Source: Clostridia bacterium (GTDB taxonomy: Bacteria; Bacillota; Clostridia; Oscillospirales; CAG-272). Taken from it: a stretch of DNA of 51,173 bases. A program made the position numbers and the translations under genes. Position 1 is the first letter of the stretch; each line of letters opens with the position of its first letter. The stretch is taken from the NCBI GenBank assembly GCA_017623255.1, contig JAGAPL010000012.1, positions 1 through 51,173 of the forward strand, written 5' to 3'. The notes beneath the pieces are model-generated. The model was given only the letters and a program-made list of their open reading frames with translations, was not told where the DNA came from and did no database searches. Of this stretch, positions 2,751 to 20,597 are shown piece by piece.

Positions 2751-2795
2751 TTAAGTATGCCTCCTGTTTTGTCGGATTAAAGGAATAATACTTGA

Positions 2796-4778
2796 TTAAT
2801 AATGTATGAAAAATGGGATTTCAACTCGGCTAAGCTCTGCGCCGTTCTGTTCCCGAATTAAGATAATACGGTAGGTTCCGGCTTTCGCCTTTCCTGCCTC
2901 ATTGGAAATGCTCAGCACTCCGTTTTCCACCTTAACGGTCAGCCCAAAGTTATTATAATCTTCCACATAGGCTATCTGTCCGCTTGATGATGAAAGCTGC
3001 TGAACCTTTAAAATTGTGTTCTCATTTTCTCCTGTAAGCTGCAGGGAAACTGAACTTTTATGATGAATTATCATCTGAGAAACATCATATGTTGCAGAAA
3101 TCGGAACTAATGATGTGTTGCACTGAATTTCTTCCGAAGATAATTCGTATATTCCCTTATATGCCGTCGCTGTAAAGCTAAGCTTATCAGGAATTGTTTT
3201 CAAATTTATGTTTGAAAAATCTATATAAATATCAATGCTTGATCTGCCTTCAACGGAAATATTAATTCCTTCTTCCCTTTCACTCAAGACGTAGCTTTCG
3301 CTATCAACCTTATAGCGTACGCCTGAAGGGAAAGAACCGCCATTATAACTGATCATTAAAGACGTTGAGTTTGACGGAACATTGATCCTTAGAAGCATTA
3401 TCTCTTCAAAAGATATGGTAGACGGATATGCTCCGTTCTCAAACATTGTTATCTCTTCTTCTTGTTTATAATACGGCACCACAGCCTTTTGACCTTCTGC
3501 TACTTCAGAACCGTTACTGTACACTACTGCGCCTAATATTATTTCGCTGATTTCCTGATCTGCTGCAACGTCAGAAAAATCTAGCCAAATTCCAACTGTT
3601 TCTTCGCTTTGGGCATCAACTTTGATTGGCATTTCATCGCCCAAAGCTATATAATTTTTGCCGTCACTGCTGAATACGGTTCCTACAGGGAACGCACCGC
3701 CGTTATATGTCAGTTCTATCATATCTGAACCTTCAGGACAAGCTATCGGCACTTTGAAAGTGCTATTCCAGTTAAATGTTGACGGACATTCTGATAAATC
3801 AAGCTGAACAGTATCTACTGAATCAGTAGTATCATCCGGATTTTCAGATGAATTGCTCATTGGAATAATATTAACAATAAAATCTGCCCACATTGTAGGC
3901 TTACCGTCAGATGCTGAATCAGGAGTCCAGCTGACGCGAACCGTTGCCTTTGTTTTCTGCGTGATTTCCACAGCAGAACTTGAAAGGCTCATTCGAAAAA
4001 CCGAAATACATTTGTTTGTATCACTGACAGTTATTCTGACGGGTGCCGACGAATTATCAAGAGATACGCCAAGATAGTCAAGATCAGATTGACAAGTGAG
4101 TGTGCCTGAAATTTCGCCGTTATATGTTATAAATTCAATATCGTGAGTTCTATAGGTTGCGGTTTCTGATACGGTCCAATCGTTAAGCAAAACTGTATTT
4201 CCACCGCTGGCAAGCAAATTGCTGCTGAATCCCACCGTGGCATCATTCACCTCATTTTCCGCATTCAAAGGACAAATCTCTACGTAGAGATAAGCCCAAT
4301 GTGTTGCAACACCGTCTGCAGAATCTGTTGGGATCCATCCAACATAGACCATTACTTCTGTTATCTTATTCAAACTAAGTGCGCTATCAGTCAAAGTAAA
4401 TGTTAAACTGACACTGACACCGTTTTTATCTGCTGTTACATTGGTTTTATCAAGGCTTGCAGTTATAAGGCTTGAGTTAGTGCTACAAGTCAGATTTCCG
4501 GAAATATCTTTATTTGTGCTTGACAATGAAATAGATTCCGTTCTTGAAGAAACACTCTGACCTATTTCCCACTTTTCAAGAAGAACTGACTGTCCGCCAT
4601 TGGCAAGATAATTACTCTCAAGCTCAGTTTTTTGAGGAGAATATACAAAATTATAAGTCTTTACGCTATTGATCCTGCCTTGAGTTATTCCGATTCCAAG
4701 AACAATCAAAGTGAGCATTGCTACTGAAATCAGCACAGCTGCCAAAGGCAAATATTTAATTCTGTGCGCTTTCATCAA
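2796..4778 (-). CDS. Secreted beta-rich protein with a SipW-like signal (GITQG|RI) and two pairs of internal repeats
   Basis: 660-aa ORF with a hydrophobic N-terminus. Repeat pair A: SNYLANGGQSVLLEKW / SNLLASGGNTVLLNDW. Repeat pair B: TYNGGAFPVG / SYNGGSFPSG. Confidence 0.8.
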   Translation of the reverse strand: MMKAHRIKYLPLAAVLISVAMLTLIVLGIGITQGRINSVKTYNFVYSPQKTELESNYLANGGQSVLLEKWEIGQSVSSRTESISLSSTNKDISGNLTCSTNSSLITASLDKTNVTADKNGVSVSLTFTLTDSALSLNKITEVMVYVGWIPTDSADGVATHWAYLYVEICPLNAENEVNDATVGFSSNLLASGGNTVLLNDWTVSETATYRTHDIEFITYNGEISGTLTCQSDLDYLGVSLDNSSAPVRITVSDTNKCISVFRMSLSSSAVEITQKTKATVRVSWTPDSASDGKPTMWADFIVNIIPMSNSSENPDDTTDSVDTVQLDLSECPSTFNWNSTFKVPIACPEGSDMIELTYNGGAFPVGTVFSSDGKNYIALGDEMPIKVDAQSEETVGIWLDFSDVAADQEISEIILGAVVYSNGSEVAEGQKAVVPYYKQEEEITMFENGAYPSTISFEEIMLLRINVPSNSTSLMISYNGGSFPSGVRYKVDSESYVLSEREEGINISVEGRSSIDIYIDFSNINLKTIPDKLSFTATAYKGIYELSSEEIQCNTSLVPISATYDVSQMIIHHKSSVSLQLTGENENTILKVQQLSSSSGQIAYVEDYNNFGLTVKVENGVLSISNEAGKAKAGTYRIILIREQNGAELSRVEIPFFIHY

Positions 4779-4802
4779 CGCTCTCCTTTCTATTCTTCAT
4801 CT

Positions 4803-5417
4803 TTATTTCACTGCAACAAAATCACTCGTCACATAAATACTAAACATACTGGGATCAACCTCACCTGAGACATTTAATTTGAAGTTTCTATAGTTAAGCT
4901 TTCCGCCTTCAAGCAAAAAACTTATTTCTTCAACATTCATATCAAGGAAAGAATAAACCCAGCCATCACCATAAACATCGTACATAGCGCTGTTTTCAGA
5001 TATTCTCTCCGGATTTGCTGCCAACACAACACTATCTCCATCTTCATCTACGTAAGATAATGAAACAGACAAAGGACCGGAGCTCACACCGGATATTAAT
5101 TTCACAGTATACGTTTGATCTCTGCCTGAAAAAGATTCACTTGATGTAGCGTTTACAACGAAAAAATCAAGAGCTGCATTATCCGAATTCTGTGTCCAAC
5201 CTGAAGAAATAGTGGACCACTCTGAATTTATAGTTTCTTCGGTAAGCTTTCCGCCGTAAAAACCAAAAGTGTTTGCGGATACTGAGCTAACATTAAATGA
5301 TGCTGTTACAATTGAAGAATGATATCTGCCATAGGTCACCCCCACAGCAAGCGCTATGCAAGCTATGAGCAGCAACAACAATATTTTCAGTAGCAAGCTA
5401 TTTTTTCTACTGCTCAT
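4803..5417 (-). CDS. Small secreted protein with a SipW-type signal peptide (GVTYG|RY)
   Basis: 204 aa; basic n-region and long h-region ending TYGRY, resembling SipW-cognate TxARY ends. Confidence 0.8.
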   Translation of the reverse strand: MSSRKNSLLLKILLLLLIACIALAVGVTYGRYHSSIVTASFNVSSVSANTFGFYGGKLTEETINSEWSTISSGWTQNSDNAALDFFVVNATSSESFSGRDQTYTVKLISGVSSGPLSVSLSYVDEDGDSVVLAANPERISENSAMYDVYGDGWVYSFLDMNVEEISFLLEGGKLNYRNFKLNVSGEVDPSMFSIYVTSDFVAVK

Positions 5418-5431
5418 ACTTACATCCTTCC

Positions 5432-7486
5432 TTAATTAGCTTCGTTTTTCAAAGAAACCCTATATACTATTACAGTTTCTTCGCTACCCTCTACCTGCAT
5501 CTCTTCTTCAACGCAGATATAGTCTTCAGAAAGATACTCCGTAACATCTGAAGTGAAAACTCCGCCATCAATTGAAACCTTAACATAATCTGCTACGGGG
5601 AACACTCTCAGTGCCATTGCAGTTCTTGCGGTGTGACTGATTTCACAGTCTCCTGTAATAGTCATGCTTATAGGATATCCGTAGTTACTTTCAATGTAGA
5701 TACCATCACCTGTGTCAAGTGAGCCGCTAAGGCCAAGCTGTTCTTCGGTAGGCACAACAATAGGGCTGTCGTCTGTTGCTGTTCCTATAACCTTACTGTT
5801 GGAAATATAGAAGTCGCCGCCCTTTATAAGCATACCTGTCATACCCTTGAGAACACTTCCTTCGGCTGAGAAAATACTGTTCATCTGAGGATGGTATACG
5901 GCTGAGTAATATCCTTCAAGCGTACTATTTATCACCTGAATATTTGTGCCCCATTTTCCGTTTTCACCGGCAGTACCATTACCGATAATTGCACTATGGG
6001 TTTTACTTATAAGAGTACTGTCCTGAATAACAAGCTGAGACATTGCTGAAGAATTTGCGCCATCTCCATTAATTCTTACTGCGCTAAGTGATCCAACAAT
6101 ATTACTATCTGAGATAATAACCGTGGAATTTGCGCCATTTGACGCATTATCTTCAATTCTCACGCCTGTATTAAGATCTGTTATATTTACGTTGCTCAGC
6201 GTTACTTCACTGCCAACTGTTTTTACACCAATTGTTTTACTTCCTGCGGAGCCTGACAGATCACCGTTGAATATGGTGACGCTTGAGCCTTCTGCTACAT
6301 TGAAAATAGATTCAATATTTGTGTCTGTAACATTTATTTCGCAGCCGTTAAGGTCAAGCAATGCATCTACATATACAGCATCCTCTGTTTCTGTGGCTGC
6401 AGAACCAATAGCTATAGGCTCGGCCACAGTTAAACTACCTGAGAGGCGAACTATATCACCACTGTTTGAGTTAAGAGCCTCTGAAAGATCTGCTTCTGCA
6501 TCAAGAGTTACAACCTGCTGATTCAGCTGCTCTCCGGTTACAGAAATTCTGGCCTGATAGCTTTTCTTATCGCTTTCAGCAGTTGTTCCGTAAAGAGTAT
6601 CCCAAACGGTATTAGCTTCTATTTCGGCCTTTGTGCAGAGATATATCCAGATTTTATTATCCTTATCTATGGGATAGCAATTGGAAGCTTCAAGTGTTAC
6701 CGCTTCATCGCCATACATAAGAACTTCATCAACTACAGAATATACGCCTTCATACCCATCCTCTGCAGTTATCTGAGCCAGATATGAATACACATCTGTT
6801 TCTCCGTCAACTGTGAGAAGATTTCCATCTTCATCAAAGGTTGCATCGTCATATGAATACTCTACAGGACGAAGATATTCTTCAACTGTTATTGCAGGAA
6901 CTCCGTCAGTTACAGTTATATCACCAACAAAATAATATCCTACAACGTCATAAACCCATTCCCATTTCACAGGCACATCTGTGCTTATCTGCTCTGAAAG
7001 AATAAGTTCATTATGTCCATACAAAGTATAGGAATAGCCTTTAGAATTATTAAGATATATTTTATCAACAGCCTCTCCATTTACAACGGATGATTTATCG
7101 ACATAGAAATATATACGTTTTTGCATCTGAGCTTCTTCCATATACTGCTTGGAAATACTTACACCTATTGAACTGGCAAGATCACTCTTGTTCTTCACGC
7201 GCAATTCAACATAACCTGTATCACCGGGAGCAGCCTCTACTGCTTCTTCACTCACCGATACAGATCCGTCAAAGCCCCAAGCTTCAGCCTTGAAGGTAAG
7301 GCCGTTCACAGCAATAGTGTTTGTATACCACGCCGTTGTTACAGCAAACAAAAGAGTTACTGTCACTACAACAATAAATACTGCAAGACCTATCGACCTG
7401 GCATATATATTCTTTTTTGCAGCTCTAAGACGATCATCACTGCTCGCAGTTGTCTGACGTCTTTTCAGTTTCAACTTGTTCAGCAC
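5432..7486 (-). CDS. SipW-signal protein with a TasA-like N-terminal domain and C-terminal beta-helix-like repeats (putative adhesin subunit)
   Basis: 684 aa, GTG start. Signal ends AVTTA|WYTN; APGDTGYVELRVKN is TasA/camelysin-like. The C-terminal half has I-x-[DN]-S-x-[LI]-x-G repeats and LDLNG, typical of right-handed beta-helices. Confidence 0.8.
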   Translation of the reverse strand: MLNKLKLKRRQTTASSDDRLRAAKKNIYARSIGLAVFIVVVTVTLLFAVTTAWYTNTIAVNGLTFKAEAWGFDGSVSVSEEAVEAAPGDTGYVELRVKNKSDLASSIGVSISKQYMEEAQMQKRIYFYVDKSSVVNGEAVDKIYLNNSKGYSYTLYGHNELILSEQISTDVPVKWEWVYDVVGYYFVGDITVTDGVPAITVEEYLRPVEYSYDDATFDEDGNLLTVDGETDVYSYLAQITAEDGYEGVYSVVDEVLMYGDEAVTLEASNCYPIDKDNKIWIYLCTKAEIEANTVWDTLYGTTAESDKKSYQARISVTGEQLNQQVVTLDAEADLSEALNSNSGDIVRLSGSLTVAEPIAIGSAATETEDAVYVDALLDLNGCEINVTDTNIESIFNVAEGSSVTIFNGDLSGSAGSKTIGVKTVGSEVTLSNVNITDLNTGVRIEDNASNGANSTVIISDSNIVGSLSAVRINGDGANSSAMSQLVIQDSTLISKTHSAIIGNGTAGENGKWGTNIQVINSTLEGYYSAVYHPQMNSIFSAEGSVLKGMTGMLIKGGDFYISNSKVIGTATDDSPIVVPTEEQLGLSGSLDTGDGIYIESNYGYPISMTITGDCEISHTARTAMALRVFPVADYVKVSIDGGVFTSDVTEYLSEDYICVEEEMQVEGSEETVIVYRVSLKNEAN

Positions 7487-8312
7487 TTTGATTTAGCTCC
7501 TCTAATAACTCTCTGCGCAATCGTTCGTACATTTCTTCGTACGTTTCTTCTTTCTTTTCTTTCTCTGTTTCCTTTTGCTTTACTTTATTGGACATTTCAT
7601 CCAATTCTTTATGTATTGCATCCATTTCTTCTCTCAGTGTTCCTATGGTGTCACGCATGATCATAACGCCTATTATAATACAGGGGAGAACTATGAATGC
7701 CCAAAATCCGATTTTACTTGTCAAGAAACTTATGAGATCGGCAAAGAAATTATCTTCGCCCGTTGCATAAATTACTTTGCCTACAAGATTTTCTTCGTCA
7801 ACCAATTTGGCATCTGCATATTTATTAGCATCACCTTTTGTTTCAAGGAAAATACTTCCGTTGTTATCCTCATAAATCTTGACTACACGGTGAGTGATGA
7901 TCATACCCAACATGCCGTTATCTCTGGAACGGAAATTGACAACATCCTCAACCTTGATATCTTCAATATCTGTTTTTTGAGATATGAGCAACGTACCTAC
8001 GGGCATCTCAGGCTCCATACTTCCCGTTGCAACGCGGAACATACTGAAGCCGCCAATTGATATATATCCATTACTCAGCACCTGACTTATAACCCAAAGG
8101 CACAAAATAATGGACATTACAAGAGCGCATCCTACAAAAAATGATGCTTTTTTGCTCTTCTTGGGCTCATCTGACTTAGTTCCTTCGTTTTCTGTTATTA
8201 TTTCAGTTTCTTTATCTTCTACTGAGTTTTCTTCCCCAATATCATTCTCAGTTGAAACTGCTTCTTCACTTTGAACAATTATATCAGTTTCTTTATTCTC
8301 CATATCAATCAT
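7437..8312 (-). CDS. sipW: Signal peptidase I, SipW (ER/archaeal type)
   Basis: TM helix, VATGSMEP (catalytic Ser), IITHRV (His), TKGDAN..D, second TM, coiled-coil tail. Confidence 0.92.
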   Translation of the reverse strand: MIDMENKETDIIVQSEEAVSTENDIGEENSVEDKETEIITENEGTKSDEPKKSKKASFFVGCALVMSIILCLWVISQVLSNGYISIGGFSMFRVATGSMEPEMPVGTLLISQKTDIEDIKVEDVVNFRSRDNGMLGMIITHRVVKIYEDNNGSIFLETKGDANKYADAKLVDEENLVGKVIYATGEDNFFADLISFLTSKIGFWAFIVLPCIIIGVMIMRDTIGTLREEMDAIHKELDEMSNKVKQKETEKEKKEETYEEMYERLRRELLEELNQSAEQVETEKTSDNCEQ

Positions 8313-9666
8313 TATTTCCTGCCAGTTCCAAATTTACAATGAAACCGGAAATCTCTCCATAGTTGATACAATCCTCATCCTGTCCCTCAAGCCAAATAAA
8401 CATTCTTATTCTTTGAGGAACGTTTTTCTCCAATGTGGCTATAACCACGTCATCAGTTGCGCCGCTGACATTTTCCAGCGCGGGATTTTCTTCAAAAACA
8501 TATCCTTTCTCATTTGCTGCAGCATAAAGAGACTCTGTTCTTTTTATGAAATAGCCTCTGTCAACATAAGGATAAATAACGTTCTGGATGCTCATCTCAT
8601 AAAACTCTTCAGTGAGTCCTGAAGCTGTTTTTGAGCTAAGATCTTTGCCTGCTATAAAGGTTTGGAAAAGCTGCTCTATAAGAACTCCGTTCCCTCCCCC
8701 ACCTGCGCGCCAAGTGTTATTAAGCTGAACAGTGAGTCGGTCTGAGACATCAACTGTTTTCAGCGCGCCATCAACAACGCCTATGGGCTTTGTTATTTTG
8801 TAATATGCTTTATTATACTTTTCTGAAATATGATAATCAGCATTGGGTTCATATATTGTGAAATCGGAATTATCAGCGGAAAACACAGACACTGCGTTTT
8901 TTTCAAGATACTGACCTTTCAAAAATGTAAATCTTGAATCATACTCGTCGCTGACATTATAGTTAAGATTGTCCGTATAGGTACACCAATCATTACTAAC
9001 CAAAAAACCAACTCTAACGCTTGACGCTGTTGCTTCATTGATCATTTTGAAATCATAACCATACTGCGCAGCTTCATTTTCAACCGCCTCCATACGACTG
9101 ATAACAAAGCTTCCGTTTTCATCTTTATCACCCGTGGAAACGCGCAGCTTATAATCTTCTGCAGGTGATGCAACCCAAAAATCAATATAAGCGTAATTAC
9201 CTACCATGCTACCTGTCAGCTTATCAGCAGGAATATTTGCATATTCAAGAGTTGTATCAACTTCAAAATCTTCTATATCCTTAAGCTGACCTACAAGTAC
9301 TTCGCCGTTTTTGGCTTCTTCACTATCTTCATCATAATAGGTAGGTCTTATCCAATTGATACCGTCTGCTGTTGAAACAGGTGTAAGTCCGGCAAGGTTT
9401 TGAAGATAGTCATATGTTTCATAATCAGACAAATGAAGTGATTGTGAAAATGCTCCGGGATAGTGAGAAACTGTTCCGTTATCATTCTTTACAGATATAT
9501 CAGCTGCCACCATAATAGTGTTGCTGCCACCCACATTTATCTGAATTCCGTCAACCTCAGGTGCGCCGGACATTGTGAGCCAAGCATAAGAAAACATACC
9601 CACCAGAGTCGCAGAAACGGTCAGAGCCGCAATAGATATTATCAATTTTGCAACGATTTTTCTCAT
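8305..9666 (-). CDS. Secreted SipW-signal fibre-subunit paralogue
   Basis: 453 aa; MFSYA|WLTMSGAPEVDGI; C-terminal IWLEGQDEDC motif shared with 14375..15373 and 17958..19127. Confidence 0.85.
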   Translation of the reverse strand: MRKIVAKLIISIAALTVSATLVGMFSYAWLTMSGAPEVDGIQINVGGSNTIMVAADISVKNDNGTVSHYPGAFSQSLHLSDYETYDYLQNLAGLTPVSTADGINWIRPTYYDEDSEEAKNGEVLVGQLKDIEDFEVDTTLEYANIPADKLTGSMVGNYAYIDFWVASPAEDYKLRVSTGDKDENGSFVISRMEAVENEAAQYGYDFKMINEATASSVRVGFLVSNDWCTYTDNLNYNVSDEYDSRFTFLKGQYLEKNAVSVFSADNSDFTIYEPNADYHISEKYNKAYYKITKPIGVVDGALKTVDVSDRLTVQLNNTWRAGGGGNGVLIEQLFQTFIAGKDLSSKTASGLTEEFYEMSIQNVIYPYVDRGYFIKRTESLYAAANEKGYVFEENPALENVSGATDDVVIATLEKNVPQRIRMFIWLEGQDEDCINYGEISGFIVNLELAGNND

Positions 9667-9695: not shown

Positions 9696-11486
9696 TTATC
9701 TTGACTGGTTTGCCCTCTGTGCTATTCTCTTTAAGCGCTCTTGCTCGCGCTGTTCTGCCTGCACACGAAGTTCAGCTTCATAATCTGCTCGCTGTTGCTT
9801 ATGAGCGGGCAATTTGTTAAGGAACAACTGCAATTCTTCGTTATACTCACGGAGATATTCCATGTCCTTTGCAATTTGCTTTTCAAGCGCTTCTTTTTTC
9901 TCTCTTTCCTGCTGCTCGTAAAGCTGCTGGCGGCGTTCTTCTTCCTCTCGGAGAATTCGCTCTTTTTCCTCCTGACGCTGTCTTCTCTTGCGTTCCTGCG
10001 CCTCTATCTTACGCTGTTCTATTTCTTCTATAAGGAAAGCAGCATCAGCAAAATCTTCTTTTTCAGCAAGATATTTAGCCATATGCTTTTCTCTTGCTTC
10101 AAGCTGATCTTCCTTTTTGTCCTCAAAACGCTTCAATTCCTTAAGGAATATTTCTTTTCTGCGTCTGTCCTCAGCCTCACGCATCATACGCTCATGGAAC
10201 AGGCGCTGTTTTTCAGCTTCTTTTTCCTGACGGATACGTTCTTTCTCGGCTTCTTTTTCTTTACGCAGGCGTTCTTTTTCCACTTCCTGCTCTTTCTTCA
10301 GACGCTCGGCTTCTTCTTTCTTTTTACGCTCCTGCTCTTCAACAAGACGACGGCGTTCTTCCTTTTCCTCCTGCATAAGCTGAGCCTTTGTAAGCTCTTC
10401 TATAAGAACCTTACGAACCTCAACATCGGGCAAGTCGTAATCCTCGGTGAGCTCTTCTATGATCTCACGTATAAATTTAGGCTTTAGTGTGCGCTGTTTC
10501 TGTCTCGGTCTGGTAGGAACAACGCGATCCTCCTGATCCTCAAGATATCCTTTAAGAATAAGATAATTAAAGAGGATGTTATGATATATATCTCTCTGGA
10601 AAACTTCGTTTATCGCAGGGCTCTGCTCTATAACGCGGATGGAATAACCGATTTGATCATAACTTCGAAGGAACTCAAACAACTCTTCAACCTTACGATA
10701 GTTAGGGTTCTTTTTAAGCACGTTTGTTTTTACAATATTACCCTTTACTCTCGGAACCCTTTCCATCTGCTGAGCAAACTTTGAATTCATAAAGGTTGTA
10801 AGCAAACGATAGATACGTGAAATGCGTGAAAACACCTCAGCATTTCGCTCATCAGTTTCCATTGCGTTTTCAGTGTTTTTGATATGGAGGAACATATCCA
10901 TATGAACGTGCTCAGTTGCACTTTCCATATCAGAACGCACCTTAAGCTTCGCACCAAATTCATCACCCATAGCTTCAAAAAGCGCATCATGACGAATCTT
11001 TACAAATCTATATGCTGTTTCGAGAGTTGTGAAAACAAGTCTGTTTTCGTACATAACCTCTGTGTCATCGCGAATCTTCTGCATCAGACGCAAAGGCTGA
11101 ACGTCACCGGTTCTTTCGTCATAGTCTTCAACGAAAGACGCATGGCTTGTCAAATGACGAACAACATCGGAATTCGTTTTCTTTGCAAGAGCTGCATTTA
11201 CTATCAGTTCTTCTTCAAGAATTACATTTCGAGGGCTGCCCACAATCTCCTGAATAGCAGGCAACGCCTTTTCAACTGCTTCGATCCAAGTTGTGTCAAC
11301 TGCTTTCTCCAGCTTACGGTTTGAAAACTGAAACTCATTGTCCGCTCTTGAAACAGCGTCCATAAAGAATTCATAAAAATCCGTGCTGGAAATTGCACGC
11401 ATAACTCCGCGAGTGAACTTTTGATAGATCGGGTCCATCAATTCTCTTGCGGCGCTATTCTTTTTTGCTTTGTTATCTCCTGCCAC
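9696..11486 (-). CDS. DUF2357 (McrC-like N-terminal domain) protein with a long C-terminal coiled coil and no evident nuclease domain
   Basis: 596 aa. Motifs IVGSPRNVILEEE, YENRLV and LKKNPNYRKV resemble DUF2357. The last ~240 aa are an E/K/R-rich coiled coil. Lies directly downstream of the McrB-like NTPase. Confidence 0.7.
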   Translation of the reverse strand: MAGDNKAKKNSAARELMDPIYQKFTRGVMRAISSTDFYEFFMDAVSRADNEFQFSNRKLEKAVDTTWIEAVEKALPAIQEIVGSPRNVILEEELIVNAALAKKTNSDVVRHLTSHASFVEDYDERTGDVQPLRLMQKIRDDTEVMYENRLVFTTLETAYRFVKIRHDALFEAMGDEFGAKLKVRSDMESATEHVHMDMFLHIKNTENAMETDERNAEVFSRISRIYRLLTTFMNSKFAQQMERVPRVKGNIVKTNVLKKNPNYRKVEELFEFLRSYDQIGYSIRVIEQSPAINEVFQRDIYHNILFNYLILKGYLEDQEDRVVPTRPRQKQRTLKPKFIREIIEELTEDYDLPDVEVRKVLIEELTKAQLMQEEKEERRRLVEEQERKKKEEAERLKKEQEVEKERLRKEKEAEKERIRQEKEAEKQRLFHERMMREAEDRRRKEIFLKELKRFEDKKEDQLEAREKHMAKYLAEKEDFADAAFLIEEIEQRKIEAQERKRRQRQEEKERILREEEERRQQLYEQQEREKKEALEKQIAKDMEYLREYNEELQLFLNKLPAHKQQRADYEAELRVQAEQREQERLKRIAQRANQSR

Positions 11487-11512
11487 TTTGATCTACCCGA
11501 TCCTTTCAAAAA

Positions 11513-13108
11513 TTAGTTAGTCTTTTTAAGTCTCTCTACATACTCTTTGCAAATAACCATTGTGTTCTTGCCAAAGAGTTTATCAAGATATGTATTGAAT
11601 CTTGTGAGCTCATCCTTCATAAAGCCAAGGCTGAGAGATTCAAACTTACGGAGAACCTTCTTTGCAATCATAAAGTCGATTGCCTGAAGCTCTGTTCCAC
11701 CGCAAGCTATAAAGCAAGGAACATAATCGCCGATCTGCTTCATAATACGGTTACCGAAAGCAAGGCGGAAGTTTTTGATAAGATAGTCATTAAGTGTTTC
11801 AAGTTTGTCAAGAATTTCCTGGGAAACAGGATACATAGCCTTTGCTTCGTCAAAGAGCTGAAGCAAACGGTCTGTTGAAATATACATAGCTTCTTCAGGC
11901 TCACATACAAAAGCTTCTGCTCTGCTATCAAGGTCGATAGGAATAGCACGGTCATAAACCTTATCGGCTACGGCGAATGTAGAGTCGTCGTTATTGATAG
12001 TACCGATAAACCATACGTTATCGCTTATCTGAACCTTACCTTCGTTAATAAGGCAGGGGTCGTTATCCCATGTTGCAGAAACAATATCAATGACCTGGTC
12101 TTCTCGTCTGGGAAGCTCAAGTGTTGAAAGCATTTCAGCAAAATAATACTCAACTCGGGCGATATTCATCTCGTCCAAAATAACAAGGTGAGGATCTCTG
12201 AAATAGTTTGCTTCATATACTGCGCGAAGGAAGTCTGTTTCAGAATATTTCTTTGAGAATTCATTAAAATATCCGTAAAGCTCTGTTCTTTCACGCCATG
12301 CAGGCTGAACTGAGATAACAGATGTATCCTTCTTTACAAACTTACCGAATGCATAAGGCAATGAAGTTTTACCTGTACCTGAAATACCCTGCAAGATAAT
12401 AATACGAGCCGCGCCCATTGAAGCAATAAAGAAACGGATCATATCAATATCGTAGTAAAGTCCCATTTTTGAGCTTGCAAATCTGCGGAAACGATCACAA
12501 AACTCAGGAAGAGTTACATTTTCCTCATAAGGTGGTGCTTCATAAGATGTTTTATAATAGTTATCAACTGAGGTAAGACGGAAGAAACGGCTATCCTGAG
12601 GATCTACGCAAGGAGAATCAAATCTGTTTCTATTGGGATTTTCGACAAATTCAACACCTTCAACTGTCTCTTCTTCAGAAACCTCTTCAGAAGCTTCATC
12701 AAAAGCTTCATCAATTGGCATGGAAGAGCCGCTAAGCTCTGCCATACGCATAGCAAGAAGCTTATCCTTTTCATAGTTAGCTCGCATAAGGTCTCTCTGA
12801 AGATTTCTCACCTGACGAACCATTTCATCATATTTTTTTGCAGGAATATAGCGACGGAATATTTTGCGAAGCAGTTTTGCAAAAAGTATGCACATAACAA
12901 CTACGAGCGCCACGAACAAAATATTCACTACAAGCATCAAAATCCATTCAGTTGTTGAGAAATCGCTATCATACGCTTTGATGATATCCATTCTCAGCTT
13001 GAAATTGAATGTATAATACAAAAAATCAAAAAATGCTACGAAAACTTCAATCAGTGAACGGAAAACTCGTCCCATATCCTGATAAAAGTATCTGAAAAAA
13101 TTATCCAT
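11513..13108 (-). CDS. McrB-family AAA+ NTPase with N-terminal transmembrane segment(s) and a coiled coil
   Basis: Walker A GISGTGKT, Walker B VILDEMN-IARVEYYFAE, McrB-like GTINNDDST..ADKVYDRA. Hydrophobic WILMLVVNILFVALVVVMCILF at aa ~55-77. Confidence 0.85.
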   Translation of the reverse strand: MDNFFRYFYQDMGRVFRSLIEVFVAFFDFLYYTFNFKLRMDIIKAYDSDFSTTEWILMLVVNILFVALVVVMCILFAKLLRKIFRRYIPAKKYDEMVRQVRNLQRDLMRANYEKDKLLAMRMAELSGSSMPIDEAFDEASEEVSEEETVEGVEFVENPNRNRFDSPCVDPQDSRFFRLTSVDNYYKTSYEAPPYEENVTLPEFCDRFRRFASSKMGLYYDIDMIRFFIASMGAARIIILQGISGTGKTSLPYAFGKFVKKDTSVISVQPAWRERTELYGYFNEFSKKYSETDFLRAVYEANYFRDPHLVILDEMNIARVEYYFAEMLSTLELPRREDQVIDIVSATWDNDPCLINEGKVQISDNVWFIGTINNDDSTFAVADKVYDRAIPIDLDSRAEAFVCEPEEAMYISTDRLLQLFDEAKAMYPVSQEILDKLETLNDYLIKNFRLAFGNRIMKQIGDYVPCFIACGGTELQAIDFMIAKKVLRKFESLSLGFMKDELTRFNTYLDKLFGKNTMVICKEYVERLKKTN

Positions 13109-13209: not shown

Positions 13210-14340
13210 TTATTCGTCTTTAGTTTCTTCCTCTTCGGAATCGTTTTCTACTGATTCTTCTTCAGCTGTTTCTTCTGCAGATTCTTCTGCAATTTCTTCA
13301 GCAGGAGTTTCCTCTGCAGCCTCTTCAATTACGTCTTCTTCAGCTGTTTCTTCTGCAGCTTCTTCTGCAGTTTCTTCAGCAGGAGTTTCCTCTGCAGCCT
13401 CTTCAGCTACTTCTTCAGCTGTTTCTTCTTCTGTTTCTTCTTCGGCTGATTCAGCAGGCTCTGTAACAGCAGCAGCCATACCCATGCTCTGCATAAGTTC
13501 AGCCTTCAGCTTTTCGCGAAGCTCTTCTTCCATTTTAGCGCGTTCTGCCGCTGCTTCCTGTGCCTTCTTTTCTTCAAGGAGCTCAGCCTTCAGCTTTTCG
13601 CGAAGCTCCTCTTCCATCTTAGCACGCTCAGCTTCCTTCTCATCCTGAGCTTTCTTTTCCTGCTCAGCAATAAGATCTTCAGTTTTACCGCGCTCCTGCT
13701 CATACTTGATGCGGTTCTTTACGTTCTGATATTCAAAGAGAACGCGGAAGAACTGAACAAGATAGAAAAGGAAGAATATAAATACGGGAATTACGACTAC
13801 TACAAGGAAGCCTGTGCTATCCTGCAGATAGTCAAATACTTTACCAAGTCCCTCAACTCTGAACTTGTATTTACCAACAACCTCAGACTCATGAACTGTG
13901 AGAGAGTCTACTACTGTGTTGGCTTCACCTTTGGTTTCGAATATAAGATATCCGCCACCGTCATAAATCTCGTGGATTTTATGTGTGTTGAGAACTCTTT
14001 CGCCGTTGATAACTGTCCAATAAGTGATAATATCACCAACCTGAAGGTCTTCGGGCTTTTCAACAGCTGTGTCGAAAATGAGGTCGCCGGGCTTAAGGAT
14101 AGGATACATTGATTCGGTCTGAATTGAATACATCTGAAAACCGAAAATGCTGGGAATACCGTTACCTGATGTTGTTACAAAAGATACGTATGTAGAAATA
14201 GCCGCAAGCACAATAGCAAGCACAAGAACTACGTTAATAATAGTGCTGAAAACCTTGCTCGCCTTACTTTGCTTCTTTACTACCTCAACCTCTTCTGTTT
14301 CGATAGCTGTTTGTTTTTTGTCTTTCATAAAACGCTCCAT
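13210..14340 (-). CDS. sipW: Second SipW-type signal peptidase I, with a coiled-coil and acidic repeat tail
   Basis: IQTESMYP (Ser), LNTHKI (His), TKGEAN..D, two TM helices; duplicated AERAKMEEELREKLKAEL and an EEAAEET-rich tail. Confidence 0.88.
   Translation of the reverse strand: MERFMKDKKQTAIETEEVEVVKKQSKASKVFSTIINVVLVLAIVLAAISTYVSFVTTSGNGIPSIFGFQMYSIQTESMYPILKPGDLIFDTAVEKPEDLQVGDIITYWTVINGERVLNTHKIHEIYDGGGYLIFETKGEANTVVDSLTVHESEVVGKYKFRVEGLGKVFDYLQDSTGFLVVVVIPVFIFFLFYLVQFFRVLFEYQNVKNRIKYEQERGKTEDLIAEQEKKAQDEKEAERAKMEEELREKLKAELLEEKKAQEAAAERAKMEEELREKLKAELMQSMGMAAAVTEPAESAEEETEEETAEEVAEEAAEETPAEETAEEAAEETAEEDVIEEAAEETPAEEIAEESAEETAEEESVENDSEEEETKDE
13225..13445 (-). repeat. Low-complexity acidic coding repeat (EEAAEETPAEE) in sipW2
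   Basis: Repeated TTCTTCAGCAGGAGTTTCCTCTGCAGCCTCTTCA and TTCTTCAGCTGTTTCTTC units. Confidence 0.8.
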
Positions 14341-14374: not shown

Positions 14375-15373
14375 TTAATTTATAGGAACCATACCGGACT
14401 GGCCTTCGGTTGTTGCGGTGAACTGAATGTTTGCCATAAGCTCTGCATGATGACCGATTGCATTGATACAATCCACATCCTGACCTTCAAGCCATACATA
14501 AAGGCTGATTTTTGCAAGTTCATCAGGTTCAAGCTTAAAAAGCTCTTTTTCTGAATCAAATTCTCCAAAAGTGTGAATAACCGTTCCGTTTCTTACAGGT
14601 GTAGCTTCTTCCCACGAATTCAGAGACTGAAGAATAATACTTTCTTCGGGGATGAGAGTTGCTGTTCCGTCAACGCTTGGTGTTTGGAGATATCCATCTT
14701 CCTCATCAACATGTTTATCATAATTAGGTTCATATATAAAGAATTCAGCAGGATCATTTTTTGTTTGACCTGACAGATCTGTCTTTTCAACAAGGATACC
14801 TATGCGGATAGCGAGCTCTGCGCCGTTTCCTCCGTTATCGTGGCTGATAGTTTCTGTGTTCCATATAGGTTTGCCTATAACGTATGTTCCCGAACCCTGA
14901 ATACCTTCTGCAACTTCAATAGCAGAGGTGAGACTTACGTGAACCTTCTGAAGAGTTCTTGCATAGAACGTGCCCTTCATATAATACCCGTCGGCATTAT
15001 CTTTGTTAGCATTTCTATCGTCTGAAAGGGGCTCCAGAATTTCATTCACTCTACCGTCAAAGCCATAGGAAACCGCATAAAATCTATTTTCTTTCTGCGA
15101 CCAGGTTATAGGGCGAAGCGGTGCCACCTCACCGATTATCTCAGAAAAATTCAACTGCAACTGCCATTCTTCAGCCAGTGGATCTACTGATAGTTCAAGT
15201 CCGCTGGGGGAATTTACATGCAGTGCCATATCACTGACCTCAGGAGTACGGCTGAGAGAAAACCATGTGTATGTAGCCACAGAAAACAAGCTGAGCAAAA
15301 CAAGAAGCACGTACAAATAGACTACTGTGCGCATACGCCGCTGCTGTTGGACTCTTGATTCGTTAGTTTTCAA
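14375..15373 (-). CDS. Secreted SipW-signal fibre-subunit paralogue
   Basis: 332 aa, TTG start with AAGGAG RBS; VATYT|WFSLSRTPEV; C-terminal VWLEGQDVDC. Confidence 0.85.
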   Translation of the reverse strand: MKTNESRVQQQRRMRTVVYLYVLLVLLSLFSVATYTWFSLSRTPEVSDMALHVNSPSGLELSVDPLAEEWQLQLNFSEIIGEVAPLRPITWSQKENRFYAVSYGFDGRVNEILEPLSDDRNANKDNADGYYMKGTFYARTLQKVHVSLTSAIEVAEGIQGSGTYVIGKPIWNTETISHDNGGNGAELAIRIGILVEKTDLSGQTKNDPAEFFIYEPNYDKHVDEEDGYLQTPSVDGTATLIPEESIILQSLNSWEEATPVRNGTVIHTFGEFDSEKELFKLEPDELAKISLYVWLEGQDVDCINAIGHHAELMANIQFTATTEGQSGMVPIN

Positions 15374-15596: not shown

Positions 15597-17855
15597 TTAG
15601 GGATTTTCTGTAACATTTACAGTTACAACGATTGCGCCTGTTACTTCAGAGATAGAGATTGTAAGTGTATCTTCATTCCATGCATTAGAAACAGGTTCGC
15701 CACCCATTGTTACAACAACATTTTCTACGGTATAGCCTTCAAGCATAGAAGCGGGAACTGTGTAAGTAAAGGGAGCGCCTGCTGTTACAGTTGTCTTCTT
15801 AGCTTCAATGCCGTTAACTGTTACAGAAGCCTTGTATTCGCCTTCGCCTTCCATTTCCTTAAGAGCTGTGTTTTCCATAGGAACGAGATCTGCGGAGCTG
15901 GAGAACTGGAGGTTCATAGCGCCCATCATAGATGTTACGCCATTTGCAACGTCAGCGTTTGTAACATTGTCACCATCAAGGTATACAAGAGCTGTGATAG
16001 CCTTTGCTGTGTTCTGGGGAAGATCGCAAAGGTTAGCCTGGTCTTCAGCAATTCTTGAACCGAGTGTGATTGTACCGTCTGTTTCAAGAGTATAGCTGTG
16101 GAGATAGAGGTCGCCTTCAATCTCTGTGAGACCTGCAATTACGTCTGCAGATGCAGCATCGTAAGCTGCTGTGTCGATTTTAGCAATACCATAGATAGTA
16201 CCGGTAGCTGTATCCATAAATACAACTCTGAGAGACTTCATAAGGTTGAGAGTTGCAGCAGCAGAAAGAACTGTCTTATCAACTGTGAAGGTCATTGTAC
16301 TGCCGCTGCCCTGTGTTGCAGAGCTTACGCTTTCTTCATAAACTCTCTGAGCAGGAGATGTCTGAAGCATAAGCTTAGAGTTAGCAGCATTTGTACGGAA
16401 CATAAAGTCTACTGCGTAAGCGTAGGGAACGTTGATAACTGCATTTGCTACTGCATTATCACCTACAAGAACACCTGCGAGAGCGATTGCTGTTCTTGCT
16501 GCAGGCATATATCCGCCGGATACTACTTCACTATCTGTCTTCATGTATGCGTTCCAGCCACCCATCTCTGTTCCACTGTAATTAAACTTAGGAACTGCTA
16601 CTGTAGCTTCAATATTACCAACTACTGCACCGAAGTCAGCATAAAGACCGGATCCAGTTACCATTGTGATGTTAAGACCATTCTGAAGAATGTTGTTACC
16701 GATCCAAGTTGTATCATGGGATGTAAACTCACCCATAAGGATACCATTGATCTTAATCTTACTTGTATCCATAAGAGGTGTGAGAACAGCGCTAATCTCT
16801 GTCCAGTTTACATTAGTCTTGCTATCTTCCATGAGAGGAGCGATATTTGTCTTTGCCTGAGCAAGAGCTGCTGTATTGGAAGCATAAGCTGTTACAGTAG
16901 CGATGATGTTTGTATTTACGCCTGATGCGTAAGTTTTGTAGTAATCAGAAGCTTGAATCTCAGCAAGTGTTGCAGAATCTGTGATAGCTGCAACTGCTGC
17001 TTCATATTTTGCCTGAGAAGATGTTGCAGAAGCTGCATCTGCAAGGAGAGCTGCCTTGATAGCATCAGCAAGAGCTGCATTAGCCTTGTCAAGGTCTGTA
17101 AGAACGTTATTAAGACCTTCTACATGATCTTTATAGTTATTTGTATCTTCGCCTGATGCAAGACCATGCTGGATTGCCATTCCTGTGAGCGCACCACCAT
17201 TGTTGTTCAGAGAGTTCTGAGCATTTGTTTTAGCGCTGGAGATAGCAGCAGCAAGGTCGGAAAGAGCTGAGTTGAATGTAACTTCGAATTCGGACATATT
17301 TGCAGATGTACCGATAACACGGATACCCTTGTAGTCATTTACAAGAAAATCTGTTGCTGTACCGATAGAGTTATCATCCTTAACCTCAAATTTAGATCCA
17401 AACTGTGTGTTAGGGTTGAGAGCCTGAGGACGACCATCAGCACCATATGTAGGTGTGGAGAGGGGCGCAGCATCGTTTACCACAACTGTAGAGTTTGCGC
17501 CTGCGTTCGCATTAAGACGTGAGGGGAGAAGAGCAATGTCTTCAAGACCGTACACGGAGTTGTCACTAAGGTTGATAAGGTTACCCCAAGTGGTGTTCTT
17601 TTCAGCCCATGTGAGGTTTGCATCGCCCATTGCAGATGTGATATCCGCTGCGTTACCGCTATAGGGGGAGAGTGCAATTTCAAGGTTGCCGTTAGCGCCA
17701 ACAGTGGTTGTGATACCCTGAATTTCAGGCGCTGTAGACAGAGTGAACCATGCATATGTGGTGGAAACCATCATAATACAAGAAACCAACAGCATTGCAA
17801 CTGCTGCAACCAGCTTGTTGCGAAGATCGGACTGTCGCTTTTCAGTTTTGTTCAT
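15597..17855 (-). CDS. SipW-signal (TasA/CalY-like) protein, candidate major fibre subunit
   Basis: 752 aa; MMVSTTYA|WFTLSTAPEIQGITTTVGANGNLEIAL; Ala-rich helical insert; ITALVYLDG near the C-terminus. Codon usage resembles efp/lysS by eye. Confidence 0.88.
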   Translation of the reverse strand: MNKTEKRQSDLRNKLVAAVAMLLVSCIMMVSTTYAWFTLSTAPEIQGITTTVGANGNLEIALSPYSGNAADITSAMGDANLTWAEKNTTWGNLINLSDNSVYGLEDIALLPSRLNANAGANSTVVVNDAAPLSTPTYGADGRPQALNPNTQFGSKFEVKDDNSIGTATDFLVNDYKGIRVIGTSANMSEFEVTFNSALSDLAAAISSAKTNAQNSLNNNGGALTGMAIQHGLASGEDTNNYKDHVEGLNNVLTDLDKANAALADAIKAALLADAASATSSQAKYEAAVAAITDSATLAEIQASDYYKTYASGVNTNIIATVTAYASNTAALAQAKTNIAPLMEDSKTNVNWTEISAVLTPLMDTSKIKINGILMGEFTSHDTTWIGNNILQNGLNITMVTGSGLYADFGAVVGNIEATVAVPKFNYSGTEMGGWNAYMKTDSEVVSGGYMPAARTAIALAGVLVGDNAVANAVINVPYAYAVDFMFRTNAANSKLMLQTSPAQRVYEESVSSATQGSGSTMTFTVDKTVLSAAATLNLMKSLRVVFMDTATGTIYGIAKIDTAAYDAASADVIAGLTEIEGDLYLHSYTLETDGTITLGSRIAEDQANLCDLPQNTAKAITALVYLDGDNVTNADVANGVTSMMGAMNLQFSSSADLVPMENTALKEMEGEGEYKASVTVNGIEAKKTTVTAGAPFTYTVPASMLEGYTVENVVVTMGGEPVSNAWNEDTLTISISEVTGAIVVTVNVTENP

Positions 17856-17957: not shown

Positions 17958-19127
17958 TTATTCCTTCCAGAATACAAGATTATCCCAGAAAGCATCCCAC
18001 TTTGCACTGAAGGAATTGTTTTCTTCATTTTCGTCAATTTCTTCATCAATCAAAGTGAAGTTCATATCCATACCTGCGTGTCCGCCGATGAGATCGTCGG
18101 TGCAGTCAGGATCATCACCTTCAAGCCAGATAACAACGGTGTATTTATGCGATTCCATTGGATCAACGCTTGTCACCGTGCCTCCTGCTACAGTGGTTGA
18201 GCTGAGAAAGCTATACGGAATCATTCTATAAAAATTGTTACCGTCCTTGCTTGTTATAAGCTGGAACTGAGCTTCAGGATCAGCTGCCCTATCGTACATA
18301 GGACAATTTAAATATCCGCGCGTATTGTCATTAAAATACGGCAGAGCCTCCTGAGTTCCATCCTCTCTCGGCTTAGCATAGAATTTCATTTTTCCGTCCT
18401 CAAAGATCATTATCCACGCCGCATCGGACATATCGTGACTCTCTGAGTTCAGATGGCAGGTCCAGTTATAGCTAACTGTTGACTCGCCTTCATTTCTGAT
18501 ATAAAAAGTGTAAGCAAAATATGTAGCTTCGTTATGCTGACCGTCAACGCTATCAACATCATCATGTATATCCGTGATAGAAACACAAGGAACATTTTCT
18601 GCCGCCTGAGCGAACAATCTCATAGTGGGATTTTCAAAACCCACCGTTTCGCTCAGAGAAAATCCCTCACGAAACATTGATTCACTCATATTGATAGTGA
18701 AGTGACCTTGCATTTGGGAGATCAACGATAATGCAAACAGCACAGCCATCAAAGCTGCCAGTGCGCCAAGCAATGCCCACAGCCATCTGCCATGGAGAAA
18801 CCACATAAGAAGGGGAAACCATTTGGTTTTATCAAAATAAAGACCAAGGCTTGATGCAATCAGCTCAAATTCCTTTTTGCTTTTAATTCCCTTTGCACGA
18901 AGCTCTTTTCGAAGCTTTTTTCTGCCTTGATTTATTTCGTTAACTTCCTCACGAGTGAGTTCTTCCCCACCGCGTGTTTTCTTAAACGGTCCCTTTTGTT
19001 TTGTTCTTTCGCCGTTTCCGGATTTTTGAACGGAAGCTTTCCACTTTTTAGGAGCGTTATCAACGCCCTTTTCGTCGATACCGACTTCTTCTACATTTTC
19101 GTTTGTCGGAATGTTCTTATCTTCCAT
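17958..19127 (-). CDS. Membrane-anchored paralogue of the fibre-subunit family
   Basis: 389 aa; basic cytoplasmic N-terminus, internal TM (WLWALLGALAALMAVLFALSLI), then YFAYTFYIRNEG and VIWLEGDDPDC. Confidence 0.8.
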   Translation of the reverse strand: MEDKNIPTNENVEEVGIDEKGVDNAPKKWKASVQKSGNGERTKQKGPFKKTRGGEELTREEVNEINQGRKKLRKELRAKGIKSKKEFELIASSLGLYFDKTKWFPLLMWFLHGRWLWALLGALAALMAVLFALSLISQMQGHFTINMSESMFREGFSLSETVGFENPTMRLFAQAAENVPCVSITDIHDDVDSVDGQHNEATYFAYTFYIRNEGESTVSYNWTCHLNSESHDMSDAAWIMIFEDGKMKFYAKPREDGTQEALPYFNDNTRGYLNCPMYDRAADPEAQFQLITSKDGNNFYRMIPYSFLSSTTVAGGTVTSVDPMESHKYTVVIWLEGDDPDCTDDLIGGHAGMDMNFTLIDEEIDENEENNSFSAKWDAFWDNLVFWKE

Positions 19128-19130: not shown

Positions 19131-20597
19131 TTACTGTTGCTCTCTGAGCAAGCTATCGCGGATAAGTTCTTCCTCGCCTACAGGGGAGCCTGTAATAGAG
19201 CCGCTTGTTGCAACAACGCCGCATGCCATCTGCCATCTGAGCAGATCATCGGAATCGGCACCGCAACCAAGAACTGTGAATCCGTTTTCCTGCAGTTTTC
19301 TTATCATTTCAGCTGCTGCGGGATCAAGATTGAGCTCCGGAGCAAGGCGAACATATCTGAAGCCTATCTCTATAAGCTCTGCATAGTCAAGCTTTTCAGG
19401 ATGATATCCATCAAGAACGAGAGCAATTCCATTTCTGAGATATCTGCCAATGATCTCCTTATTCGCTTTATTTGCATTTATAAATGCATCTTCGGGAACT
19501 GTGATCATAAGCATTGACTTTTCAATCGGTTGATCATCGAAGAGCTGATTGAAACGCTGAAGCTGCGTGCCAACTGTATAAAAGCCGGGCATCATATTGA
19601 GCAGTATTCCGCGCGTTTCAAGCTTACAATTTTGCATACGGAACACGGTGTCTGCTGCTTCATACATAAAATAGAAAGCCATATCTGCTATCAATCCTGT
19701 ACGAACAAGCATTTCGTGAATGTCTGCAATTCCTTCGGTTTCGCCGGGTCTGTTTGCTATTGCGCCAAACCAAGGCGTTGCCTCATATGCAACAACACTT
19801 CCCTCTTTGTCACCGAACATCGCTTTATATGTCAGTCCCATTGGTCTGTCTGCGCGCTTGTCCACAAGGTGAACTGTCTTGGGAACAGTCATTGTATAGT
19901 GGATGTATTTATTATACACTGAACGGCACTTTGATTTTGCAGCCTCAAGAACTGCTATAAGCTCCGTTGACCAGTATATATCTTTTTGGGATAAGAGAAC
20001 ATCATAAGCATCATCAAAAGGCTTTTCAGATTTGGTTTCTGAGGCTAGTCTGTCAAGTTCCTTTGCGAGACCTACTATCTGAGCTATGGGGCTTATGTTG
20101 TTGCCCATCTTTCCTTCAGGATAGCCTGAGCCGTTCCAACGCTCCATATGCTGCTCACAGGATTCTCTTATCATGAGCCAAGGGATGTTTTTGGTGGCCG
20201 TTTCACCGCTTGCGTCGCCGCGGCGCTTTTCTCTCGCGCGCTGGCCGCGGCTCTGGAGAGCCGCGGTCAATGCACGACCGTCAGTGGTATATTTCTTATA
20301 AACTGCCACTTCTTCATCAGTAAAGTCGTCTCGCCAAAGCTGATAATCGGGAGGTACCAACGCTTTTCCAAGCTGATGGTAGAGTCCGCACTTATATGCA
20401 AGATCTCCATACTGACTCTTGATCTGCGCTGCGCCATCGGAATGGTTTTTACCAAAACCGTTTGAGCATGCCTGCAGGTAAAGCACCTGAGTATATGCTG
20501 CAACGCGGATTGACTGCTGGCGTACTACAACGACTAAGCCTCGAAATGCTTCATCCCAGGTTTCATATTCAACTTTTTTCCAGTTATTATCGTTCAA
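19131..20597 (-). CDS. HD-GYP + EAL fusion protein, both domains degenerate
   Basis: LYHQLGK (normally HDIGK), QHMERWNGSGYPEG, IVGLAKELD. The EAL-like half has YEAT, LDGY and GCGAD in place of EAL, DDFG and EGVE. Confidence 0.8.
   Translation of the reverse strand: MNDNNWKKVEYETWDEAFRGLVVVVRQQSIRVAAYTQVLYLQACSNGFGKNHSDGAAQIKSQYGDLAYKCGLYHQLGKALVPPDYQLWRDDFTDEEVAVYKKYTTDGRALTAALQSRGQRAREKRRGDASGETATKNIPWLMIRESCEQHMERWNGSGYPEGKMGNNISPIAQIVGLAKELDRLASETKSEKPFDDAYDVLLSQKDIYWSTELIAVLEAAKSKCRSVYNKYIHYTMTVPKTVHLVDKRADRPMGLTYKAMFGDKEGSVVAYEATPWFGAIANRPGETEGIADIHEMLVRTGLIADMAFYFMYEAADTVFRMQNCKLETRGILLNMMPGFYTVGTQLQRFNQLFDDQPIEKSMLMITVPEDAFINANKANKEIIGRYLRNGIALVLDGYHPEKLDYAELIEIGFRYVRLAPELNLDPAAAEMIRKLQENGFTVLGCGADSDDLLRWQMACGVVATSGSITGSPVGEEELIRDSLLREQQ

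Follow-up and report, generated by a model that had tools for sequence, protein, structure and literature searches.

A predicted membrane-anchored McrB-like NTPase and its nuclease-less McrC-like partner in a SipW operon of a Clostridia bacterium

Here, we describe a gene pair on the 51,173-nucleotide contig JAGAPL010000012.1 (assembly GCA_017623255.1) of a Clostridia bacterium, the whole of which we refer to as the window. The pair encodes a predicted membrane-anchored nucleoside triphosphatase (NTPase) of the McrB type and an McrC-like partner in which no nuclease was found, and it lies between genes for SipW-type signal peptidases and for secreted, putative fibre subunits. This cassette of predicted SipW, NTPase, partner, and SipW genes is conserved and co-oriented across Clostridia. 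We are highly confident that the pair belongs to CoCoPALM, a class that Bell et al. (2024; PMC11090510) named and linked to pilus assembly, giving it a single paragraph and deferring its analysis to a forthcoming paper. The window pair is a further member of a class that, going by that paragraph, is named in print and uncharacterized; the name itself was found only in this eLife paper and its preprint, with no follow-up. Added here are the absence of a nuclease from every membrane-type partner examined, a cytoplasmic topology, the tailed SipW peptidases, and a transglutaminase-linked sister clade. A first-pass annotation, made from the letters of this DNA alone, had interpreted the pair as restriction machinery repurposed for a fibre operon, and this interpretation is supported as far as sequence goes, besides having already been published in outline (PMC11090510).

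Predicted membrane-anchored NTPase

The 531-residue protein is predicted to be an McrB-type AAA+ NTPase of the N-x-D branch, with all catalytic motifs intact. As the first-pass annotation had it, the Walker A (G241-S249) and Walker B (L311-N315) motifs are preserved, and in an alignment of 28 sequences (39–85% identity) these are invariant, along with the signature N372-N373-D374-D375 and an FGNR motif (F451-R454). McrB is the sole named relative by sequence, matched weakly as the NCBIfam McrB family PRK11331 (E = 0.0039) and, among the sequences of the Protein Data Bank (PDB), as McrB 6hz4 (E = 0.005 over residues 230–389), also weakly. The search of Pfam gave nothing below an E-value of 0.01, at which AAA_5 was matched, and this same family is matched by 25 of 28 family members (best E = 1.6e-6). 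More than 8000 homologues of the NTPase exist, the 120 best-scoring of which are 68–100% identical to it over the full length.

In the AlphaFold2 model, with a pLDDT (predicted local distance difference test) score of 79.6, helices at residues 2–34, 36–45, and 52–87 are followed by a helix at 90–125, a disordered acidic linker (126–162), and the AAA+ fold (176–530). Residues 1–162, where a DNA-binding N-terminal domain would have its place, are hence taken up by membrane helices, by a coil, and by the disordered linker, which agrees with what had been proposed in the first-pass annotation. A Foldseek search with the model matched MCM, dynein, NorQ, MoxR, and McrB, the last of these (6ut6_D, E = 7e-6) at rank 21. 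Re-ranking with VIA-align placed MoxR 2r44 first (Z 15.7, root-mean-square deviation (rmsd) 4.4, 284 residues aligned), with RavA 3nbx at Z 14.3 (rmsd 4.8, 268 aligned), and McrB was not among the top 50. We use the label 'McrB-like' because sequence, signature motif, and partner agree on it, and not because of the fold rank.

We also looked at the hydrophobic N-terminal region in 96 homologues, where the hydropathy maximum has a median position of 58. Taking 15 residues on either side of the transmembrane (TM) segment, the median net charge rises from −1 ahead of it to +4 behind it, and the charge after exceeds that before in 95 of the 96. The positive-inside rule therefore predicts an N-terminally anchored protein with its coil, linker, and AAA+ domain on the cytoplasmic side. 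Separately, in one related locus (L033:8998-10647, on G087:C99), the NTPase orthologue is split by one in-frame TAG into open reading frames (ORFs) of 400 and 117 residues, a break that could reflect pseudogenization, an error in sequencing, or recoding.

Nuclease-less McrC-like partner

As a whole, the 596-residue partner finds no match in Pfam, NCBIfam, or PADLOC. Its first 380 residues match Pfam DUF2357 with an E-value of 1.1e-4 and 22.0 bits, just below the cut-off of 23.3, and this family is matched by 13 of 15 members of the partner family (best E = 5.3e-12). Homologues of the partner number 1567 in the database, several with a precomputed PF09823 annotation. The AlphaFold2 model (pLDDT 73.8) has a mixed alpha/beta N-terminal domain reaching to about residue 320, and then one unbroken helix from residue 354 to 595. 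A wide VIA-align search, which does not rely on Foldseek, gave Z 7.3 both for McrC from Thermococcus gammatolerans (6ut5_G; rmsd 6.8, 138 aligned) and for McrC from Escherichia coli (6hz4_M; rmsd 6.5, 142 aligned). These matches fall on residues 61–279, nearly all other rows are coiled coils lying on the tail, and McrC is the only non-coiled-coil family to match the N-terminal domain twice. While a Z of 7.3 is middling, it agrees with the DUF2357 result. With the whole model, which is dominated by the long helix, Foldseek returned nothing from the PDB at E ≤ 0.001, and a profile of the N-terminal domain met only chance matches among PDB sequences (E about 0.7).

Of the McrC architecture, the partner retains only the N-terminal DUF2357 domain, and a charged helix of 242 residues stands in for the nuclease. 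The first-pass annotation had described just such a helix, of about 240 residues, and had named a nuclease domain in the partner as what would speak against its interpretation. No PD-(D/E)xK nuclease was matched in Pfam, NCBIfam, or PADLOC. Moreover, we took the nuclease domains of four classical, nuclease-linked relatives and made a profile of them, which recovered all five classical partners (E from 3e-8 to 9e-78) and no membrane-type partner at E ≤ 10. The model leaves no room for a PD-(D/E)xK fold after residue 320, and the residues invariant in the family (Y21, W67, E72, L112, P131, Y146-E147-N148, F161, R221, T254-N255, and L269) do not form the D...(D/E)xK pattern. Scanning ten operon proteins against Pfam and NCBIfam likewise gave no nuclease family.

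The helical tail is 57% charged and lacks glycine and proline, and its i/i+4 pairs of opposite charge (54, compared with 38 ± 4.7 in shuffled sequences) accompany little heptad periodicity. It may be a single helix of the ER/K type rather than a classical coiled coil. Complete partners are 362–998 residues long (median 703), with 61 of them longer than 420 residues and 13 at or below this length, and the tail ranges from absent to about 640 residues. A complex prediction for two NTPase chains (residues 196–531) and the partner (residues 20–345), run without controls, scored 0.00 and gives no verdict on binding either way.

Linkage across genomes

A scan of one genome per species yielded at least 518 relatives of the NTPase, and the best 80 were examined in their genomic setting. 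These loci span Oscillospiraceae, Lachnospiraceae, Ruminococcus, Christensenellaceae, and others. The partner gene adjoins that of the NTPase in 79 of them, the exception ending at a contig edge. A SipW gene is in view at 78 loci (all except L074 and L116), being within 3.5 kb at 77, and 45 loci have two or more. A gene resembling that for the membrane-anchored paralogue H389 of the window is found at 68. At all 80, the genes that match window operon proteins are co-oriented. Moreover, among fetched loci with E ≤ 1e-134, each of the 11 shows SipW, NTPase, and partner, mostly followed by a second SipW. Thus, rather than sitting in defence islands devoid of SipW, as would have spoken against the first-pass reading, the orthologues are SipW-linked. 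As an aside, in two Christensenellaceae-type loci (L125 and L130), a SipW gene is found between the NTPase and partner genes, breaking the usual adjacency.

More distantly, five NTPase homologues (E about 1e-20 to 1e-28) have no TM segment. Their partners combine DUF2357 with PDDEXK_7 in four cases according to Pfam, and in all five according to the nuclease profile, and one of these nuclease-linked pairs adjoins a gene resembling those of DNA methyltransferases. The signature N-x-D-[D/E] is common to the window NTPase and these relatives, in which the same columns read NMDD, NIDE, and NMDE. We also noticed a sister clade, made up of five NTPases from three genomes, in which a TM-bearing NTPase and a nuclease-less partner occur with no SipW. 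Here, the pair is followed by membrane transglutaminase-like proteins of 730–1564 residues (Transglut_core, E about 1e-20; TgpA_N; AgI_II_C2). In two of its loci (L044 and L045), a single partner has an NTPase paralogue on either side, and the whole cassette comes directly after rpoA-rplQ.

A tree of 62 rows combined the window NTPase with every NTPase ORF of 380 residues or more from loci L032–L050 and with those from only the even-numbered loci of L052–L131. Its groups follow the locus sets, and L074 and L116 were labelled SipW although no SipW is in view there. The membrane forms are split from the nuclease-linked outgroup with a support of 100. One branch has the transglutaminase-linked rows, and no others, on one side (support 90), and another does the same for the SipW-linked rows (support 80). 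The clade-wide linkage of TM-bearing McrB to SipW that the first-pass annotation had proposed checking is seen in the best 80 loci.

Proposed function and alternatives

In McrBC, a DUF2357-type N-terminal domain of McrC plugs the McrB hexamer and triggers hydrolysis. Because of the homology with McrBC, we picture a hexameric ring that the partner both plugs and activates, and because of the genomic context, we picture this ring acting with the SipW/fibre apparatus as a motor, timed switch, or scaffold. Six NTPase subunits and one partner would form a membrane-tethered ring under the site of SipW processing and fibre secretion, where partner-stimulated hydrolysis of GTP (or ATP) would serve as a motor or timed switch. 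Hydrolysis would couple the cytoplasm to the processing, anchoring, or polymerization of SipW substrates, and the connection might run through the charged partner helix, the C-terminal tails of the SipWs, and the H389-type anchor's cytoplasmic tail. The pair probably has its function in the fibre apparatus, and not in defence. With somewhat less assurance, we favour the view that CoCoPALM pairs represent an McrBC-like branch taken over by a Sec/SipW-dependent surface-fibre operon. That the pair does mechanical work, as opposed to switching or scaffolding, seems to us possible though doubtful.

Several points weigh against a role in fibre assembly. The label 'fibre' or 'pilus' is itself an inference, drawn from SipW and SipW-type signals. 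The putative subunits have no similarity to TasA or any solved structure that sequence searches could detect, and TasA-type fibres of Bacillus are not known to need a cytoplasmic NTPase. The NTPase resembles MoxR, RavA, and MCM in structure at least as closely as it does McrB, and the published FtsB homology of its N-terminus was not reproduced with Pfam. Since the 80 loci are the top-scoring ones and form one clade, they amount to a clade-wide linkage and not to 80 independent events. Lastly, the distribution is patchy, as in accessory or defence genes, with a relative at E ≤ 1e-10 in 27 of 399 sampled Clostridia genomes.

This patchiness would suit a membrane-linked defence sensor, derived from McrBC, that guards the fibre or envelope against the phages using it and has its effector encoded elsewhere. 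So would the nearest sequence relatives, which are DUF2357 and PDDEXK_7 pairs (one of them beside the methyltransferase-like gene), and the match of PADLOC's PDC-M26A to the NTPase (E = 5.9e-42), a type for which no literature was found. However, the PADLOC match covers only the GTPase core common to all types. With Pfam, NCBIfam, PADLOC, and the nuclease profile, neither the partner nor the neighbouring proteins yielded a nuclease or any other effector domain, and the position in the operon is fixed, with co-orientation in every one of the 80 loci. For these reasons, and given the identity of at least 68% among the 120 best homologues, we regard a defence role as improbable; the sister clade beside rpoA-rplQ also goes against it. 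No more credible is a spatial landmark, by which an FtsB-like N-terminus directs the complex, and fibre assembly with it, to the pole or the site of division. The FtsB homology of the N-terminal TM segment and coil was reported by Bell et al., in their paragraph on the class (PMC11090510). Against it, the Pfam listing for 28 members of the NTPase family names 25 families, and DivIC/FtsB is not among them. Moreover, the coil of FtsB is periplasmic, whereas that of the window NTPase is predicted to be cytoplasmic by the positive-inside rule.

Closer to a fibre motor is a regulatory switch or scaffold that does no mechanical work, for instance a GTP-timed checkpoint, or a cytoplasmic platform that positions or gates the SipWs and membrane anchor, perhaps under cyclic di-GMP (c-di-GMP) control and with the charged helix as a spacer. 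It would fit the HD_5 and EAL gene of the operon, which is kept in related loci, and a partner tail whose composition suits a spacer helix and which varies from none to some 640 residues. A further point in its favour would be the joint occurrence of tails on partners and SipWs. Comparing 81 of 91 loci, namely those whose partner is complete and has an equally complete SipW within 6 kb, we found both tailed in 61, neither in 9, and a mixture in 11 (Spearman 0.34). However, only three independent contrasts underlie this association, which is therefore not usable, and the strict conservation of the hydrolysis motifs suits a motor equally. On the whole, we consider a switch or scaffold of this sort rather unlikely.

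Returning to a module that serves fibre assembly, it would, if it powers or gates a SipW-dependent fibre, constitute an unrecognized pathway for assembling adhesive structures in fibre-degrading, gut-colonizing Firmicutes, and it would show a restriction motor re-used outside immunity. More tentatively, the module might drive the building of Gram-positive surface structures in general, as an NTP-driven engine taken once from restriction and coupled either to SipW fibres or to transglutaminase-like giants. Were this the case, gut Clostridia would have a new energized pathway of pilus or fibre assembly, and an immune motor turned secretion or assembly motor would be clearly exemplified. The family is very large, with its more than 8000 homologues and at least 518 genome loci, and it is often met in Oscillospiraceae, Ruminococcus, and Lachnospiraceae of the rumen and gut. 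Since the class is named yet unstudied, its function is directly testable, and among the carriers in culture are Ruminococcus flavefaciens MC2020 (L131) and Lachnospiraceae bacterium 10-1 (L081).

Surrounding operon

According to the ORF list, every gene from position 3 to 32096 is on the minus strand, and the partner gene starts 26 bases downstream of the NTPase gene (Table 1). As the first-pass annotation had noted, SipW and subunit genes flank the pair on both sides, and the putative subunits on either side include proteins with SipW-type N-termini. Both peptidases score well above the TIGR02228 cut-off of 51.85 bits (86.9 for SipW a and 86.4 for SipW b) and match NF046067 (E = 1.2e-24 and 2.6e-25, respectively), and both extend into a long charged C-terminal tail beyond the last hydrophobic segment. 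In one study, two RNA-library runs gave contigs that skip 63 bases in the repeated charged tail of SipW b (window positions 13367-13431), which suggests that the length of the tail is polymorphic between strains.

Table 1. Predicted features of the SipW operon in the window, and loci of the sister clade
Feature	Coordinates	Strand	Basis
CoCoPALM McrB-like NTPase, 531 residues	11513..13108	-	ORF, motifs, McrB matches, AAA+ fold
NTPase N-terminal membrane region, residues 1–87, main TM about 52–80	12848..13108	-	AlphaFold2, hydropathy, charge
NTPase short coiled-coil helix, residues 90–125	12734..12841	-	AlphaFold2 secondary structure, pLDDT, composition
NTPase AAA+ domain (McrB-type, N-x-D branch), residues 176–530	11519..12583	-	Motifs, AlphaFold2, structure searches
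Nuclease-less McrC-like partner, 596 residues	9696..11486	-	ORF, DUF2357, homologues
Partner DUF2357/McrC N-terminal-like domain, residues about 20–320	10527..11429	-	Pfam, VIA-align, invariant residues
Partner charged E/K/R-rich helix, residues 354–595	9702..10427	-	AlphaFold2, composition
SipW-type signal peptidase b, 376 residues, long acidic/charged C-terminal tail	13210..14340	-	TIGR02228, NF046067
SipW-type signal peptidase a, 291 residues, charged C-terminal tail	7437..8312	-	TIGR02228, NF046067
E453, secreted, SipW-type N-terminus, C-terminal W-L-E-G-x-D-x-D-C	8305..9666	-	Translation; conserved place after partner in related loci
F332, putative fibre subunit, SipW-type signal	14375..15373	-	Translation, family alignment A5, TIGR04088
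G752, large secreted paralogue, SipW-type signal	15597..17855	-	Translation, synteny
H389, membrane-anchored paralogue, basic N-terminal (cytoplasmic) tail	17958..19127	-	Translation; H389-like gene in related loci
HD_5+EAL protein, putative c-di-GMP phosphodiesterase	19131..20597	-	Pfam HD_5 (E = 2.9e-12), EAL (E = 1.1e-9)
Downstream genes D684, C204, B660, A916 (A916 runs past the window end)	3..7486	-	ORFs; order kept in related Oscillospiraceae loci
Sister-clade loci	L043:8758-19008; L044:7818-16765; L045:3217-12558

The secreted proteins F332, G752, E453, and A916 and the membrane-anchored paralogue H389 begin with a basic and then hydrophobic stretch followed by (S/T)-x-(A/T)-W-(F/L/V)-(S/T), and the C-terminal motif W-L-E-G-x-D-x-D-C is common to this group. 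In the subunit alignment (A5), W37 of the signal region, W294, G297, and D299 are invariant, with E296 and C302 at least 90% conserved. By their sequences, these putative subunits appear to be an undescribed family, as no Pfam family or relative of solved structure was found for them, and neither F332 nor its 24-member profile had a relevant match among PDB sequences. In NCBIfam, 24 subunit homologues gave TIGR04088 in three cases and TapA in two, all weakly, and the Pfam-bearing Atlas cluster nearest to F332 is Peptidase_M73 at 0.85, which serves as a lead only.

Other observations concern the rest of the gene array. The HD_5 and EAL protein has full-length homologues in Oscillospiraceae-type loci and a shorter match of about 220 residues in Lachnospiraceae-type loci. 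At the head of the array (21894-32096, minus strand), a giant secreted protein of 3400 residues (J3400) contains many Cys-rich repeat modules and, at its C-terminus, D-x-N-G-D-G repeats that by eye look dockerin-like; J3400-like fragments recur upstream in related Oscillospiraceae loci. A scan for promoters and terminators gave counts close to those of shuffled sequences, and operon boundaries are therefore not claimed. Most of the operon, with both genes of the pair, is covered by contigs from the RNA libraries of two bovine-gut studies. As carry-over of DNA is possible, this hints only weakly at expression, and the bins of 9339-13340 that are uncovered in X17 and X19 carry no evidential weight.

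Comparison with known systems

The MoxR and RavA AAA+ chaperones (2r44 and 3nbx) are the best structural matches of the window's NTPase domain. The pair differs in having no VWA or DUF58 partner, and its sequence and DUF2357 partner point to McrB. MoxR genes neighbour those of transglutaminase-like membrane proteins, and this is echoed in the transglutaminase-linked sister clade. To McrBC, the type IV restriction system of E. coli and T. gammatolerans (6hz4, 6ut6, and 6ut5), the likeness lies in an AAA+ domain with Walker A and B motifs and an N..D signature, in a partner with a DUF2357-type N-terminal domain, and in adjacent genes ordered B then C. In contrast, the window pair has a TM segment and coil instead of a DNA-binding N-terminal domain, no nuclease that we could find, and a non-defence context. 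Moreover, its signature is N-x-D-D, while that of McrBC is N-x-x-D in the classification of Bell et al. (PMC11090510).

The coiled-coil CoCoNuT systems, as outlined in the same source (PMC11090510), share the N-x-D GTPase branch, long helical extensions, and McrC homologues that often lack an active nuclease. However, they are soluble and have tandem nucleases (HEPN and others), whereas none were found in the window operon, whose GTPase is predicted to be membrane-anchored. SipW combined with secreted proteins bearing SipW signals, and having a matrix or fibre function, is also found in the SipW-TasA-TapA system of Bacillus subtilis and the sipW-bsaA-bsaB-bsaC operon of Clostridium perfringens (PMC11580942). 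Neither includes an NTPase, while the window operon has two SipWs, both with long charged cytoplasmic tails, and subunits without detectable sequence similarity to TasA. A search for literature joining SipW and McrB gave nothing relevant.

The closest correspondence is to CoCoPALM, which Bell et al. (PMC11090510) describe, in their brief treatment, as an McrB-like GTPase of the N-x-D branch fused to a TM segment and a coiled coil reported to be FtsB-homologous. They associate it with genes of the signal peptidase family and with helical extensions carried by its McrB homologue as well as by its McrC homologue, and they note that NxD is usually followed by E or a second D. On each of these counts except FtsB homology, which Pfam did not reproduce, the window pair looks alike: N372-N373-D374-D375 fits the branch, two SipWs flank the pair, the NTPase has a predicted TM segment and coil, and helical extensions are predicted at residues 90–125 of the NTPase and 354–595 of the partner. 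Set beside the class as sketched in that paragraph, no feature of the window pair contradicts its membership.

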